Position numbers and translations under genes: made by a program. A DNA stretch of 64,000 nucleotides. Origin: a virus. Taxonomy: Duplodnaviria; Caudoviricetes. The notes beneath the pieces were generated by a model. The model searched no databases, was not told the DNA's origin, and saw only the letters and a list, made by a program, of their open reading frames with translations. Of this stretch, positions 49,366 to 56,123 are shown piece after piece (the stretch's first letter is position 1; every line of letters begins with the position of its first letter). The stretch lies in the IMG/VR virus record IMGVR_UViG_3300019742_000001; one strand, given 5' to 3'.

Positions 49366-51111
49366 TTACATCATTCCTATACTCACACCGTACCCTTCGT
49401 ACGCTTCTTCATCTCTAAGTGTCTGTTCTAAATATTCTTTTTCAGACTGACCTTCTGAGATCAAATCACTACCATCAAGACTAATACCTTGGTTACCCAA
49501 TGAACTGAAATTAGCAAACTTTCTACGAATCAAACCAAGACTCATCTTTGACATTGCTGTAACATAATCAAGAATCCAATCTTCGTCATACATTGCCTCT
49601 TCAACATCTTTCTCAAAAGGTGTTGCTGATGTATAACTCACAACAATATCATCACCAACATTTAATATTAGATTCCCTGATCCATCAACACCATCTAACG
49701 CCAATCCATCCCACGAAACAATAGTAGAATCCTCTAACCTAAAATCAATCCCATAAACACGATCAAACGCACCAACAGTGATTTTCATCCCATCACCAAC
49801 CGATACTGGATCTTCTGTCTCTAATGACTTATTATCAATCTCTTCTTGTGTTAATTTTCTATTCTCTATTCTTGTCGTATACTGTCTTGTTACACTCTTA
49901 TTAGCCTTAGAGTTGTTTGGTCTACGACTCCGAACAGCAACATATGTGATAATAATTTCATCACCTATTCCTAACACCCCATCAAGTCCAAGATCTTTCC
50001 ACGTCAATATTTTCTTGTCATTCGTTTCCATTTTGAAATCTTCTCCAAAATTATGAACGATACCACCAGCAGAAACAGTCACGTTGTCATCCCATACAGG
50101 CCAAGACAATGTAACCTTACCAGTGTCAATATGATTTTGATTAATTCTATATTGTTCAACTTCCTTTGAAGTCGATGTAACATTTGTCCATTCGTCTGGG
50201 TAATATTCTGACTCAAACAATACAGGATATGAAATTGATACTTCATCACCTATAACCAATTGACCATCTAACCCCAACTCAGACCACGTAAGAACACGTC
50301 TATTCGTGTACAGTTGATCAAAGTCAACAAACTTTGTAGTAGTTATTCCATTTACAGTTAATTTAATATCAGATTGTACATTGGTATCAAACTTATCACT
50401 GTAATCAATACAAGGTGTGTGTTTCAACACCAACGACTTATTCAATATATTATTAGTAGTGATTGTTACATCCTCTACTACCGTTTTAACTTCCTTGAGT
50501 ACATCCTTCCATTCTGGTTTATATGTCGGCAGAGTAGATCCCTGTAACACATATGATCGTAATAATACATATCCCGGAGAATCAAAGACATATTCCTTCG
50601 GTAACCCTGTGTCATCATCATTTCCCCACCTATAAACCATACTCTCATTCAATGGTGGTGCTGGATTAATCTCAAGTTGATTTGTTGATCTATGGTATTT
50701 CCAATTATATCTGGATGGTGTATATTTTTCTAATGTCTTTAGGAAATCCAATGCTATATGATAACTTACCAAATCAGGTCCACCACTTATCATGTTCCCA
50801 AACATACCTTGTCCAAACATATAGTTCTCTATTGTGAACAGGGTATTAATACCACCACTACGAATCGCATGATCATCATACTCAATAACCTCACAAACCC
50901 CAGCAGGCAAATCATATAAGGTTTTTCCTCCTTGTAACATAATCGTAAAGTATGCTTCTTGTGTCGCGTTACCAATCGCCCACTTGATCCATTTCTGTCT
51001 GGCATAATCAATGTGCTCGCTTATCTGGTCATCACACATTTCAACCTTGACCATCGGTTCACCTAAACGATTACGAACTTTTTGTATTAATTGACTTCTT
51101 GAGATCGCCAT
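49366..51111 (-). CDS. 13: neck protein gp13 with ~300-aa triple-domain insertion
   Basis: RLGEPMVKVEM.DDQI at the N-terminus; DWILDYVTA..K..LG..R.KF...G.SLDG at the C-terminus. Confidence 0.88.
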   Translation of the reverse strand: MAISRSQLIQKVRNRLGEPMVKVEMCDDQISEHIDYARQKWIKWAIGNATQEAYFTIMLQGGKTLYDLPAGVCEVIEYDDHAIRSGGINTLFTIENYMFGQGMFGNMISGGPDLVSYHIALDFLKTLEKYTPSRYNWKYHRSTNQLEINPAPPLNESMVYRWGNDDDTGLPKEYVFDSPGYVLLRSYVLQGSTLPTYKPEWKDVLKEVKTVVEDVTITTNNILNKSLVLKHTPCIDYSDKFDTNVQSDIKLTVNGITTTKFVDFDQLYTNRRVLTWSELGLDGQLVIGDEVSISYPVLFESEYYPDEWTNVTSTSKEVEQYRINQNHIDTGKVTLSWPVWDDNVTVSAGGIVHNFGEDFKMETNDKKILTWKDLGLDGVLGIGDEIIITYVAVRSRRPNNSKANKSVTRQYTTRIENRKLTQEEIDNKSLETEDPVSVGDGMKITVGAFDRVYGIDFRLEDSTIVSWDGLALDGVDGSGNLILNVGDDIVVSYTSATPFEKDVEEAMYDEDWILDYVTAMSKMSLGLIRRKFANFSSLGNQGISLDGSDLISEGQSEKEYLEQTLRDEEAYEGYGVSIGMM

Positions 51112-51453: not shown

Positions 51454-52536
51454 TCATTTACTGGCCAACCAAGACCAATCCTCTTCCATTGCACCATCCC
51501 CAAAATCTGCCAGAACTCCCCACGCCTCATCCTCATTCTCTTCTGCGACAAATTGATATGATTCATCAAACACTTCTTGTTCTAATACAAATATTGCCCA
51601 GTACAATGCAGATACAAGGTCATCAGCGATATTAACACCAGCATACCTACCGTTACCTACATCTTGAAAGTCGGCTAGTTGTTCAACGGTTCTTGGGTCA
51701 ATAATCTCAACACATTTATCTTCAAGTATCTTTTTCATCAAAAGAACTGCCAGTGTTTTTGATTTTGTTGTAGCTCGTATACCCAAATCTCGTTCTTTAC
51801 TACCTGTATTTATAAGATTTTCGTTCTCGTATTCCCACCACAGTCTATTTACTACCGGAGCACCCTCTCCATTATTCTCACACATTATATGAGCATCATT
51901 ATAATAGTATGAAGTTCGGTTAACAATTGACGCAAAACTGTATACATCTGTATAGTTATCTTCCCATACAGCAACCTGTGTCATCGTTACTGGTGTGATA
52001 CTATCAATCCTAAGTATCTGAATAACTGATGAGTTTTCTCCTGTACCTTTGGCTGTATCAACTCCCATTACATAAGTACAACCAGACTTTGGTTTCTCCC
52101 AAATTCTGAACTTACCTAACATATCAAGGAACTCTGGCTCTTTTCTTCGTTTAAATAATCTCTCAATACAAACAGAATCTATAACTGTATTACTTGAACC
52201 GATAAACTCACAATTGTGGTGAACGAAACCATCACCGTAATACACATCACCACCAGTGACACCCAATAGATCATATACATCTGACCCACCAAGATTAATT
52301 ATCTTTTTTATCTTGACCTCGCCATAATGTCTATGTATGATGGTATCGTTAACAGATAGGTCATCCGCAAACACTTCACCAGAAAGAGTGACAAATCGGT
52401 GACCAACAGAAACTTCACAATACAATCCATTGTCACATTCAAATCTATAACCCTCTTTTTCCAACTTCTGTACACCAACAAAACTTTGAAATCCTGTAGG
52501 TGTCAACACTTTATATTTTGTATTTCCTTTCAACAT
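51454..52536 (-). CDS. 17: terminase large subunit, C-terminal half: IntC plus nuclease domain
   Basis: After ...VHHN/CEFIGSSN come the RNase H-type motifs MGVDTAKG, CENNGEG, DDLVSAL. Confidence 0.93.
   Translation of the reverse strand: MLKGNTKYKVLTPTGFQSFVGVQKLEKEGYRFECDNGLYCEVSVGHRFVTLSGEVFADDLSVNDTIIHRHYGEVKIKKIINLGGSDVYDLLGVTGGDVYYGDGFVHHNCEFIGSSNTVIDSVCIERLFKRRKEPEFLDMLGKFRIWEKPKSGCTYVMGVDTAKGTGENSSVIQILRIDSITPVTMTQVAVWEDNYTDVYSFASIVNRTSYYYNDAHIMCENNGEGAPVVNRLWWEYENENLINTGSKERDLGIRATTKSKTLAVLLMKKILEDKCVEIIDPRTVEQLADFQDVGNGRYAGVNIADDLVSALYWAIFVLEQEVFDESYQFVAEENEDEAWGVLADFGDGAMEEDWSWLASK
52213..52536 (-). mobile_element. split intein C-fragment (108 aa)
   Basis: Block B-like VSVGHRF, block F VYDL, terminal HHN followed by Cys+1. 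Confidence 0.92.
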
Positions 52537-53161
52537 TTTTCCACACCTTACCCTTTATGATCCGTTCAATTTGTTGTGGTGTAACACCATATTCACCTGC
52601 AAACTTCAAACTGAACGCCCTAATGTATGACATTGGTCTTCCATTCTTCATGACTTGACCAACACCTTCTATATATGGCTGGTCTTCAAACATTTCAATG
52701 ATTTGTATAACAATTGATTCTGTCAACTTTGTATTTGGTGGAAGAATCCCCTTACGAGTATCACACCACTTTTTACGCTGTTCTTCGGTGTGATTACATC
52801 CTTTAAATGGGATACCATCACGTTCCACTCTCTTCTTTGCTGACTCACTCATCTTCTGTCTTGATTCTTCTGTATAAATATATCCTCTGGTTGTAAAATC
52901 ATGACAAAGATGGTTACCCTTACCGTCAATTGATTCATTCAATCCATTATTGTAAGTATCATACAACTCTATATAATATTCCTCTCTGACACCAATATGA
53001 GAATAATCATCACTTCTTTCTAATATATCAAATTCAAATGAAAATCCCAAGAACCTATCTGATCTGGAATGGGCTGTCATTCTTCGTTTCAACCCTTTGT
53101 CAAATGTTGTTCCTATATAAAGTTGACCATCACTTCTGGTTATTTTATAAACTATGTACAT
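52511..53161 (-). mobile_element. free-standing GIY-YIG homing endonuclease with NUMOD3-like and HTH tail
   Basis: IVYKIT...LYIGTT, RMTAH, EEYYI, NGLN, TEESRQKMSESAK; GGAGG RBS before MYIVY. Confidence 0.88.
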
Positions 53162-53181
53162 AATTTCCTCCATATATACAG

Positions 53182-53189
53182 TATTTATA
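53182..53189 (-). promoter_or_regulatory. T4-type late promoter TATAAATA for endonuclease and TerL-C
   Basis: Exact octamer in the gap between the TerL-N stop and the endonuclease RBS. Confidence 0.8.
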
Positions 53190-53204
53190 AAATCCTATGA
53201 ATTG

Positions 53205-54050
53205 TCAACCGAAATTATCATACAGATCCGAAATCTTTATGTCCTGTATAATTCCTGTCGATTCATCCTTTATTGTCACCAAAGAATTTTCACCCAAGCA
53301 ACCAAACTCTTGATTAAATTTGACTTTACCAAGGTTAGACATCTGTTCTGCCGCCCACTCTTCATCCCTTCCGGGAACTGCACGATAATCAAAACGAGCG
53401 TGTTTAAATGTATTCTTACCTTCTTCCGCCTTTGAATAAATTTCATGGAACTTATTATACAATCCATTTGGTGTGGAAATTATAATAATCTTTGATTCTT
53501 TTGACGCTGAAATTGTTGGGTAGTTTGATGCCCAAAATTCATCTGCTTTCCATGAAGGTTCAACGAAAGCAAACTCATCACAAATCAACATTCCCATCGG
53601 CTCACCACGAAATGAATCTTTTGATGTCGCCGCAATATAAATCTTTGTATGGTTGTCAAACTCTATGGTAGTCTGTGCCCATCCCGGAACTCCGGGTTTT
53701 AACCAAACTGGTAATAATTCATACATGTATTTCAGTCGTGCCAAAAAGTTCTTTGCGGCATCAGCTTTGTTGGATACGATACCAATATTCTTATGACTGT
53801 GAAAACATGCAAACCATAATGCGTATGCAGCAACAATGGTTGATTTACCTGACTGTCGTGATAACAAACATACATTAAAACGATTGTCTATAAAGTTTTG
53901 TATTAGTTCTCTCTGATAGTCGTATGGTTGAAATGTTTCAACACCACTATCTTGACTAACTATTTTTATATAATGACTAATAAAGTATAATACATCATTC
54001 TTACACCTATTAAGTTCTCTAACTTCCGTTGGAGTATAATCATATTCCAA
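53205..54050 (-). CDS. 17: terminase large subunit, N-terminal half: ATPase plus IntN
   Basis: Walker A SRQSGKS, Walker B LICDEFAFV, IIISTPNG, QEFG followed by intein block A. Confidence 0.95.
   Translation of the reverse strand: MEYDYTPTEVRELNRCKNDVLYFISHYIKIVSQDSGVETFQPYDYQRELIQNFIDNRFNVCLLSRQSGKSTIVAAYALWFACFHSHKNIGIVSNKADAAKNFLARLKYMYELLPVWLKPGVPGWAQTTIEFDNHTKIYIAATSKDSFRGEPMGMLICDEFAFVEPSWKADEFWASNYPTISASKESKIIIISTPNGLYNKFHEIYSKAEEGKNTFKHARFDYRAVPGRDEEWAAEQMSNLGKVKFNQEFGCLGENSLVTIKDESTGIIQDIKISDLYDNFG
53208..53300 (-). mobile_element. split intein N-fragment (31 aa)
   Basis: CLGENSLVTIKDESTGIIQDIKISDLYDNFG then stop. Confidence 0.9.
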
Positions 54051-54111
54051 ATTAGGAGCTTTTACATAGTCATCATATTTGACGTTACCACCAATAACAC
54101 ACCTTCCCTAA

Positions 54112-54145
54112 AATGGGTGACCCCTGTATTTCAGGATCACCCATT
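54112..54145 (-). terminator. hairpin between phoH and terL
   Basis: AATGGGTGATCCTG-AAATA-CAGGGGTCACCCATT followed by TT; TATAAATA at 54153-54160 just upstream. Confidence 0.55.
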
Positions 54146-54155
54146 CACATTTTAT

Positions 54156-55340
54156 TTATAAACCTGTCTCTCTAACCATATCGGCTATTGGACCTCTTGA
54201 TTTGTTTCCACCAAGGACAACATGTCCATAGTTAGGTTGTCCTTTGAATAATCTAACCATCCAATTCAATCCATTATTCTCTGCATTCAAATGAATATTA
54301 TCAATCTGTCGTACATCTCCTGTACAAATAACTTTTACATTATCCCCCATACGAGAAAGAACCGTTCTCATTTCATCTCGTCCAAGGTTCTGAACCTCAT
54401 CAATCAACACAATTGCATCATCAATGTTCATACCCCGTAAAAAGTTTATAGGTAACATTTCAACTGCCTTATGATTCAGTTCCAACTTGTTTGTCTCTAC
54501 ATCTTCCCATGCTCTGTTAGCTGGTCTAAGATCGTGTAATTTTTCCATTAAATCCTGAATAGGTCTAAAATATGGATACATTTTATCACTGACATCTCCG
54601 GGTAAGAACCCAAGTTCATTACCTATTTCGATGTTTGCTTTAAATATAAAAATCTTCTTGTATTTCTTTTTTTCAAATACCTGATCAAACATTGATGCTA
54701 GTGTGATAAAGGTCTTACCGAATCCTGCCTCTGATTGTATCGTCACTAAATCAATCTCTGGGTCTGTAATTAGTTCTATGGCGGCTTTCTGATACTGTGT
54801 CCTTGGTGATACCTTCCATACAGTATTTTCGCCAACTGCTGACTCCTCTCCATACTTGTTATTGAAATATAGTTTCCCTTCATTCCAATAAAAACAGTTC
54901 TTTTCTAATTGTTCTCCCTCATCAACATTAACAAACCCCGTATATCGTTGTGATTCTGATTGAAATGGGTTACTATCTCTAAACTCTTCTGATTCAATAC
55001 CTAATTTCTGTGCCTTAAATCTTAGAAGATTATCGTTTGTAACAAAGATAGCATCTGTAATCTTATCTTGGTTTGATTGGATCTCTCGTAGAATCGAATT
55101 ATCGGGTGATTCGTGTTTTACCCCGTTATGTATAATTGTTACGTATTCAAAATTTTCTCTGATTACATTTATTGCTCTTGTAACTTGATGTCTTTTCTTT
55201 TGGTTTCCTTTTAGTTTATCTAACTCTTCTATAACAGTAGCAGGAATGTATATATTGTTCTCTTCTCCATTCCTTAAAATTTCAATGCAATTTTCATTAT
55301 CCAGTAACACGTTAGTGTCAAGAACGTAATTTTTTTTCAT
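54156..55340 (-). CDS. phoH: PIN-domain PhoH-family ATPase (YlaK/PhoH2-like)
   Basis: YVLDTNVLL PIN start; EAGFGKT; LGFLPGD; FLRGMNI; LIDEVQN; GDVRQID. Confidence 0.92.
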   Translation of the reverse strand: MKKNYVLDTNVLLDNENCIEILRNGEENNIYIPATVIEELDKLKGNQKKRHQVTRAINVIRENFEYVTIIHNGVKHESPDNSILREIQSNQDKITDAIFVTNDNLLRFKAQKLGIESEEFRDSNPFQSESQRYTGFVNVDEGEQLEKNCFYWNEGKLYFNNKYGEESAVGENTVWKVSPRTQYQKAAIELITDPEIDLVTIQSEAGFGKTFITLASMFDQVFEKKKYKKIFIFKANIEIGNELGFLPGDVSDKMYPYFRPIQDLMEKLHDLRPANRAWEDVETNKLELNHKAVEMLPINFLRGMNIDDAIVLIDEVQNLGRDEMRTVLSRMGDNVKVICTGDVRQIDNIHLNAENNGLNWMVRLFKGQPNYGHVVLGGNKSRGPIADMVRETGL

Positions 55341-55376: not shown

Positions 55377-55961
55377 TTATTCACTTGTTTCTGTACTATC
55401 ATCGATGGGATCATCAATGGTTTCCACACACACCTCCCTTTGTATTTCATCAGCGTGAATCATATCCAACAGATCTTCTCTGGTCATAACCATTACAGTA
55501 TTATTTGTATCTGTACCTGTTCCTGAAACTCTACTCCCAGCTTTCTCTGCGGCTAATGCGGCTTTGACAGCCACTTCTTTTTCCTTTACTTCTACCATCT
55601 TCATATTGTATTCATGTTTCCATAATCCAAACGATGAGTTTTGTACGGATGTTGCTGCTGATGTGATTGAATTGATTAATTGACCACACACTTCATACAT
55701 TCGTGCGTTCGTCTCACCACCATTAAGAATAGCGTTCTGTGCGGTGTCTAATAGGGTGTTGGCTCTCTCAATATTTGTTAAGAGTATGATATCAGGGTCT
55801 TGATCTTTTTGACCTCTTATAACCTCTGCCAGTTGATTTCTCATATCCCTTATTTCTTGGATTTGTTGTTCGTTCTCTTCTGTTGTATCTATATCAAATT
55901 CTTGTTCAAGTATATTTGTGTTTACTTGTGAATTAGCTCTGTCTTCATCATACTGAGACAT
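55377..55961 (-). CDS. 16: terminase small subunit gp16
   Basis: ARMYEVCGQLINSI motif, TNNTVMVMTREDLLDMI tail; start trimmed to MSQYD with AGGAG. Confidence 0.75.
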   Translation of the reverse strand: MSQYDEDRANSQVNTNILEQEFDIDTTEENEQQIQEIRDMRNQLAEVIRGQKDQDPDIILLTNIERANTLLDTAQNAILNGGETNARMYEVCGQLINSITSAATSVQNSSFGLWKHEYNMKMVEVKEKEVAVKAALAAEKAGSRVSGTGTDTNNTVMVMTREDLLDMIHADEIQREVCVETIDDPIDDSTETSE

Positions 55962-56123
55962 ATATTTTATTCTCCTGTTTACATATTTATTGGAATGATT
56001 TAGACTAAGGTTATTAACCGCCGAGGGTAATATGATATATACTACTACACTATCTGTACCAAGTTTCATCCCTATACATTTTATTTCTTCTAATTGTATT
56101 TATGTATTTTATATAGAAGATAG

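Follow-up and report, generated by a model that had tools for sequence, protein, structure and literature searches.

Genes at the locus

The window analysed here is a 64,000-nucleotide stretch of viral DNA (IMG/VR record IMGVR_UViG_3300019742_000001; Duplodnaviria, Caudoviricetes), and our subject is its gene for the large terminase subunit (TerL), terL, which is broken into two parts by a split intein with an endonuclease gene between the halves. Judged from sequence comparison and predicted folds, this is very probably a functional, trans-splicing fractured terL with a homing endonuclease, carried by an uncultured T4-like phage of ~240 kb from microbial-mat metagenomes. Three consecutive open reading frames (ORFs), all on the minus strand and each in a different frame, lie where an earlier reading of the bare sequence (the original prediction) had placed them. 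The first encodes TerL-N followed by the N-terminal intein half, IntN (53205..54050, 281 residues counted from the first TTG); the second is the endonuclease ORF, in its long form 52511..53173 and 220 residues; the third encodes the C-terminal intein half, IntC, followed by TerL-C (51454..52536, 360 residues). None of the parts contains an internal stop or frameshift, and the locus is predicted to yield three proteins, TerL-N-IntN, the endonuclease and IntC-TerL-C.

The N-extein (53301..54095; 265 codons from a probable ATT start, 250 from the TTG at 54050) is a T4-type terminase ATPase domain, matching Pfam Terminase_6N at 2.3e-20 and PHROG 5989 at 4e-63, with Walker A SRQSGKST and Walker B LICDEF. 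It ends in NQEFG and runs directly into the 31 residues of IntN (53208..53300), which begin with Cys1, read CLGENS...DNFG and are closed by a TGA at 53205-53207. The free-standing homing endonuclease occupies 52511..53161 (216 residues from the second ATG of its ORF), and its 3' end overlaps the start of IntC by 26 nt (52511..52536). IntC (52213..52536) comprises 108 residues with block B S43-x-x-H46, block F D89 and block G H107-N108, finishing in FVHHN. The C-extein then opens with Cys+1 in CEFIGSS and extends over 252 residues and a stop codon (51454..52212). It is the RNase H-like nuclease domain, as seen from its matches to Pfam Terminase_6C, to the terminase large subunit PHROGs and, by phmmer against PDB sequences, to the RB49 terminase nuclease domain 3C6A (4.9e-16) and T4 gp17 (1.6e-9).

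The TTG is probably not where translation of terL-N begins. The frame 5' of it stays open, reading IGGNVKYDDYVKAPN, and both contiguous and split relatives begin MGGNV(R/K)YDD(Y/F)VKAPN, with N-termini of the forms MGGNVKYDD... and MAGNVRYDD.... Since their ATG sits at the codon that is ATT 54095 in the window, and GGAAGGTG immediately precedes this codon, the most likely start by comparison is ATT 54095, 45 nt upstream of the TTG, which would give a protein of 296 residues. For the endonuclease, the second ATG at 53161 (216 residues) is the most likely start on similar grounds: GGAGG lies 5 nt upstream, gene callers picked 53161 on one identical contig, and all 20 homologues start and align at this position. 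The ATG of IntC is preceded by a Shine-Dalgarno sequence, AAGGTGTGG, which lies inside the endonuclease gene and is kept in the relatives L003 and L019, where the overlap also has the identical length of 26 nt.

The split intein

A phmmer comparison with PDB sequences pairs IntC with 6DSL chain B ('Consensus engineered intein CatC') at an E-value of 1.6e-9 and 36% identity, residues 1-113 aligning to 9-117. IntN aligns position for position and in register with CatN of 6DSL chain A, and the extein flanks agree as well, EF-x preceding and CE following the intein. An AlphaFold2 (AF2) model of IntC, built with 30 homologues, has a pLDDT (predicted local distance difference test) of 84, and a Foldseek search of the PDB with it returns inteins only. 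Among the 39 intein or HINT (Hedgehog/intein) matches at E<=1e-3, the best are gp41-1 (3.5e-7), Cat (8.1e-7; template-modelling (TM) score 0.76, 36% identity) and VidaL (3.7e-5), and the model thus supports a HINT fold for IntC. Kinship with AceL-TerL and Cat, raised in the original prediction, is borne out by the match of IntC to CatC in both sequence (E 1.6e-9) and fold (TM 0.76).

The residues expected of a class 1 intein are all in place: Cys1, the block B His, the block F Asp, the penultimate His, the terminal Asn and Cys+1. H46, D89, H107, N108 and Cys+1 (C109) are invariant across 30 aligned IntC homologues, and Cys1 is found in six of six IntN sequences, including those of L003, L019, L022 and the Aeromonas phage PX29. 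The split falls after block A, leaving 31 residues in IntN and blocks B, F and G in the 108 residues of IntC. Both halves have the lengths and the boundaries, including the HHN|C end of IntC, that had been read from the sequence beforehand.

The endonuclease between the halves

The 216-residue protein can be divided into a GIY-YIG catalytic domain (residues 1-~75), a NUMOD3 motif (~93-110) and a helical C-terminal part that is putatively DNA-binding. Pfam GIY-YIG (PF01541) is matched over its whole profile, 1-78, at 26.5 bits (cut-off 22.6); a Pfam scan of the 220-residue version of the ORF missed it. NUMOD3 scores 20.4-21.5 bits, at its cut-off of 20.4, and the protein belongs to the homing endonuclease family PHROG 314 (1.4e-18). 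Y5, Y15, G17, R27, H31, E60 and N75 show at least 90% conservation, up to full invariance, across 21 endonuclease homologues; these residues we take to be the I-TevI catalytic set. Structures of the I-TevI catalytic domain take the first three places among the PDB matches of the AF2 model (probability 1.0, TM ~0.65 on the target), with E-values that are weak (5e-3) because the model is multi-domain. The helical C-terminal domain is predicted with a pLDDT of ~90 and lacks a clear PDB match, and a phmmer search of PDB sequences with the endonuclease yielded noise only. With its own frame, a Pfam GIY-YIG score above cut-off and an I-TevI-like predicted fold, the protein is what the original prediction had called it, a free-standing GIY-YIG endonuclease. 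No paralogue of either the intein or the endonuclease is found elsewhere in the window.

Signals around terL-N and the endonuclease start

A candidate late-promoter motif, TATAAATA, lies upstream of terL-N at 54153..54160 on the minus strand, overlapping the end of the PhoH-like gene; it is a match to the T4-type consensus only. It is followed by a strong GC-rich hairpin (about 54112-54143, minus strand), upstream of ATT 54095. A second hairpin covers the start of the endonuclease gene (53142..53193, minus strand), with a predicted energy of -16.8 kcal/mol and a z-score of -2.7, one in 200 shuffles being as good. Its 5' arm holds a perfect TATAAATA (53182-53189), its loop the GGAGG (53167-53171) and its 3' arm the AUG (53159-53161). 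L019 and L022 share both the motif and the hairpin, and L003 has TATATATA. Scans for sigma-70-like promoters and for terminator-like structures stayed at chance level.

By burying the start codon, the hairpin would hold down translation of the endonuclease on terL mRNA that reads through from upstream. On transcripts starting at the late-promoter-like TATAAATA inside the hairpin, translation would be released.

The split in assemblies and in relatives

A 2,901-nt stretch spanning the locus is 100% identical in separately assembled contigs of two runs and is partly present in a third ENA assembly. Contigs of four runs were compared, and no substitution, indel or alternative joint was found in the three microbial-mat runs, in one of which the k-mer depth is ~40. 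A stronger argument comes from comparison: relatives at 80%, 65% and 47% identity (L003, L019 and L022/L023, respectively) each have their own stop after an IntN of 30-33 residues, and they share the layout of a TerL-N-IntN gene, an endonuclease gene and an IntC-TerL-C gene. The stop at 53205, which an assembly error might have produced, is hence not a one-off error of this kind.

Removal at the RNA level was considered as well. Between 51000 and 54500, no Rfam family is matched at E<=1, group I and group II introns included. Since the gap before the endonuclease gene measures 43 nt and the gene after it begins with an overlap of 26 nt, there is no room for a ribozyme core. Among 50,697 phage records, megablast found no match to the 2.9-kb stretch, so there is no close cultured relative in this set.

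Probable splicing and its alternatives

With IntN and IntC removed, the exteins join to a TerL of 502 residues from the TTG or 517 from the ATT. Against nine contiguous TerL homologues (71-89% identity), the joined sequence needs no gap across NQEFG|CEFIGSS, as expected if terL is split at QEFG|C in the way first proposed. This gap-free junction and the E-value of IntC against 6DSL chain B together lie well outside what chance would give. The five closest contiguous, intein-less TerLs (P0015, P0017, P0020, P0021 and P0022) are 84-89% identical to the joined exteins; the locus encoding P0022 (L006) has a single 520-residue terL in the order terS-like, PIN-PhoH, terL, a 105-residue ORF and gp13-like. 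In the alignment to T4 gp17, Cys+1 corresponds to A354, making the insertion equivalent to T353|A354. The hinge of gp17, residues 354-364, links ATPase subdomain II with the nuclease domain and aids their relative movement during translocation (PMC3074133), and the insertion therefore sits at the first hinge residue.

Selection on the splicing residues can be followed in the 120 best matches to IntC-TerL-C. Cys+1 is present in 40 of 40 IntC-bearing relatives; in the 75 contiguous intein-less alleles, the same position is Cys in 33, Val in 39 and Ile in 3. These sequences are related and not independent, and the counts are to be read as a pattern rather than a p-value. One pair, P0032 with and P0063 without the intein, has C-exteins identical at 251 of 253 positions and differing at +1/+2 (CK vs VQ), which resembles the trace of a very recent gain or loss, the conversion tract being two codons long. 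For the window against L003 or L019, the ratio of nonsynonymous to synonymous substitution rates (dN/dS) is 0.14-0.16 for IntC, 0.07-0.12 for the endonuclease and 0.08-0.10 for the C-extein, values that are rough because dS is saturated (above 1). Purifying selection on IntC and the endonuclease, whose dN/dS spans 0.06-0.16 overall, similar to that on the exteins, is suggested by these ratios and supports splicing. The proposal that DNA packaging in this phage would depend on protein trans-splicing is thus backed computationally, by the catalytic residues, the tie between intein and Cys+1, purifying selection and a cis-version of the intein at the same site.

A different use of the intein halves is conceivable, in which they act as non-covalent docking modules and the TerL halves work as a heterodimer lacking a peptide bond. 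Split genes with an intervening endonuclease can work unspliced, as described for Aeh1 nrdA in work cited by Dassa et al. 2009 (PMC2677866), and isolated gp17 domains retain partial activities (background in PMC3074133). However, all splicing residues are invariant in 30-40 homologues, and Asn108 and Cys+1 would have no role in docking alone; the latter is present in 40 of 40 intein alleles, the position often being Val in intein-less ones. Docking would moreover leave ~140 extra residues in the flexible hinge (gp17 354-364). We consider this explanation improbable.

Still less probable is a decaying or non-functional terL, carried by a phage that is defective or by a variant at a dead end. 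Decay would fit the non-canonical ATT found where terL-N should begin and the interruption of the gene by a stop and by frame changes, but relatives down to 47% identity keep the layout, dN/dS is low in all of the parts, each part is free of internal stops and frameshifts, and the sequence is present in several runs with a k-mer depth of ~40x. Nor is there a second terL-like match in the 64-kb window, as searched with the intein and endonuclease queries only. It is scarcely credible that the split arose by error or disappears from the RNA, the true gene being one ORF with a cis-intein and nested endonuclease or one with a group I intron. A Campylobacter phage paper did interpret a comparable terL as combining an intein and an intron (PMC3322345), and cis versions of this intein exist (P0030), but an artefact needs two compensating errors because the three ORFs are in three different frames, independent assemblies are identical, relatives show stops of their own at this point, and the locus offers neither ribozyme room nor an Rfam match.

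Several observations weigh against a functional, trans-splicing terL, in addition to the saturated dS. The similarity of IntN to CatN has an E-value of 0.3, insignificant alone and weak because IntN is short, and Pfam Intein_splicing remains below threshold on IntC (17 bits vs 35.8). The probable start codon of terL-N, ATT, is an uncommon one and may point to low expression. Over the whole 64-kb window, TATAAATA is not enriched (11 found vs 9.5 expected), so that a promoter role for it rests on position, conservation in relatives and analogy. The runs sharing the sequence are all from microbial mats, possibly from the same source samples, and are not fully independent; RNA runs searched for the stretch do not contain it. 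Set against the invariant residues, the gap-free junction and the conserved layout, these points leave trans-splicing as the explanation that we favour.

Unbroken intein, relatives and probable mobility

The unbroken counterpart is found in P0030, a metagenomic TerL fragment with a contiguous intein of 133 residues at the same site, colinear with IntN and then IntC of the window. The break in the window (...DNFG stop / MLKGNTKY...) falls within the short linker of P0030, ...ERLGRNKKRNIK..., and the fractured state is for this reason most simply explained by insertion of an endonuclease gene into a mini-intein. A further IntC from this family stands at the very start of P0030, at the Walker B motif. 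Further elements in related genes include another split site near the TerL N-terminus with a Vsr-like endonuclease upstream (L015:719-2365) and an additional LAGLIDADG intein in TerL-N (L022:955-2820; L022/L023, 226-kb contigs). TerL in this group is a hotspot for inteins and related elements.

In a maximum-likelihood tree of 118 C-exteins, computed with the +1 residue masked, the intein state changes at least 24 times, 16 of these changes being forced by well-supported branches. The nearest C-extein neighbour of the window is the intein-less P0015. The endonucleases of L003 and L019 are orthologous to the GIY-YIG enzyme of the window (75% and 69% identity). Two relatives that are ~71% identical (L004:2-682 and L020:2-694) have a DUF559/Vsr-like endonuclease in the split-intein gap, while their IntC is 66% identical to that of the window. 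The endonuclease has here been exchanged and the intein retained. The IntC-TerL-C ORF of P0008 (568 residues, on a 3.5-kb contig) does not end at the usual TerL C-terminus but has ~200 further, unrelated residues, which may reflect a fusion or the loss of a stop codon.

An IntC profile searched against 1.84 billion representatives of protein clusters (50% identity) finds 4,771 of them at E<=1e-3 and 1,249 at E<=1e-10. About 70 of the best 150 matches are proteins of ~350-410 residues that start with IntC. Systems of this type had been described as rare, which the 1,249 clusters do not bear out for metagenomes.

A PIN-PhoH fusion gene (394 residues; 54156-55340, minus strand) lies between terL and a terS-like gene (55377-56069, minus strand; PHROG 445, weak), and the order terS-like, PIN-PhoH, terL is kept in L006, L016 and L019. 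On the other side, a gp13-like neck or adaptor gene (49366-51111, minus strand) encodes 581 residues, of which only the first ~160 match PHROG and Pfam families of T4 gp13.

Proposed mechanism and significance

A class 1 mini-intein of ~139 residues would sit where the hinge that joins the ATPase domain to the nuclease domain begins. A free-standing GIY-YIG gene would have broken it in a short linker after the first ~31 residues. After translation of the parts, the short and probably disordered IntN would dock into the near-complete IntC, finishing the HINT fold. Cys1 would form a thioester, Cys+1 would attack it, Asn108 would cyclise, and an S-to-N shift would leave a native peptide bond. The product would be a TerL of 517 residues (502 if started at the TTG) with an intact hinge, and the excised intein halves would be discarded. 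The endonuclease would most likely cut the intein-less terL of co-infecting relatives near the insertion site, and repair after the cut would copy the whole module into the intein-less allele.

It is also possible, albeit rather unlikely, that the module is more than a passenger, setting the timing or stoichiometry of the packaging motor and acting in competition between phages. If so, the ATT start would throttle TerL-N, the late promoter of the endonuclease would add to TerL-C transcription, and the rate of trans-splicing, possibly along with the redox state of Cys1 and Cys+1, would gate motor assembly. Cutting the intein-less terL of a co-infecting phage would then both give an advantage and spread the element. 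Intein-less relatives at 84-89% identity do co-occur in public metagenome data, and the P0032/P0063 pair would be a natural snapshot of such an event.

The locus leaves the known picture unchanged and opens no new question. Its value lies in being a complete natural example, with both intein halves, the endonuclease, the regulatory motifs and close relatives of the intein-less and cis-intein types. It also brings data on how such elements move and persist, namely the Cys+1 tie, the P0032/P0063 pair, the exchange of GIY-YIG and Vsr-like enzymes at one split site and the unbroken intein. Inteins with a short IntN are useful for protein semisynthesis, and the present one, 36% identical to Cat, could be an orthogonal partner and may add to the short-IntN inteins available for protein engineering.

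Comparison with known systems

The arrangement is already known, as the fractured gene of Dassa et al. 2009 and in the AceL-TerL/GOS-TerL family, and it is common in metagenomes. One parallel is phage Aeh1, whose nrdA holds mobE (Gibb and Edgell; Friedrich et al. 2007); as cited in the fractured-gene paper (PMC2677866), a late-promoter hairpin there sequesters the ribosome-binding site of the endonuclease and so controls its translation. There, too, a homing endonuclease splits an essential phage gene, and the hairpin design is that seen in the window. In contrast, Aeh1 nrdA has no intein, the NrdA halves associate non-covalently and the endonuclease is of the HNH type, whereas the window combines an intein with a GIY-YIG enzyme.

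'Fractured genes', as described by Dassa, London, Stoddard and Pietrokovski (2009), are host genes in two neighbouring parts on one strand, each fused to a split-intein half, with a free-standing GIY-YIG or Vsr-like endonuclease between them (PMC2677866). In these loci, the 3' end of the endonuclease gene overlaps the IntC start by 6-69 bp, and a hairpin with a late-promoter motif is found at the endonuclease start in many, though not all, of them (PMC2677866). Halves on the same strand, an intervening GIY-YIG gene, an overlap (here 26 bp) and a hairpin with TATAAATA are all shared by the window. Their terminase locus, from Lake Gatun, has an unusually long IntC of 122 residues lacking only motif N1 (PMC2677866). 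It is a partial metagenomic assembly, whereas the window contains the two halves, the endonuclease and their flanks in full; otherwise the two are of the same kind.

A cultured T4-like phage with a related arrangement is Aeromonas phage PX29 (GU396103; also AsFcp_1/2/4), annotated since 2010 with 17A as 'putative N-intein' and 17B as 'GIY-YIG endonuclease and C-intein'. Its IntN of 33 residues starts with Cys and its IntC ends in THN|C, and it is the best match of the window's IntC-TerL-C in the phage database, covering 96% at 29% identity. The PX29 endonuclease, remotely like that of the window, is fused in frame to IntC in an ORF of 599 residues, whereas the enzyme of the window is free-standing. 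By alignment, the insertion in PX29 lies one residue earlier (QQEH|CCRF vs QEFG|CEF).

Closest in the intein itself are AceL-TerL, GOS-TerL and Cat. Known atypically split TerL inteins have an IntN of 25-37 residues and an IntC of 104-115 (review PMC11766414). The window intein shares with these three the TerL host, EF-x before and CE after the insertion, a split after the first ~25-37 residues, and a long IntC with blocks B, F and G, as well as Cys1/Cys+1 as in AceL-TerL and Cat. It differs in its own sequence, in the exact lengths of 31 and 108 residues, in a -1 Gly instead of Glu and in the S-x-x-H of block B. The original prediction of a new natural variant holds at the level of sequence, given the 36% identity to CatC, but not at that of architecture, which has been known from 2009, with PX29 annotated in 2010. 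Unlike AceL-TerL, GOS-TerL and Cat, the window intein is known with its full genomic context, comprising the endonuclease, the promoter-like motif and a 240-kb phage.

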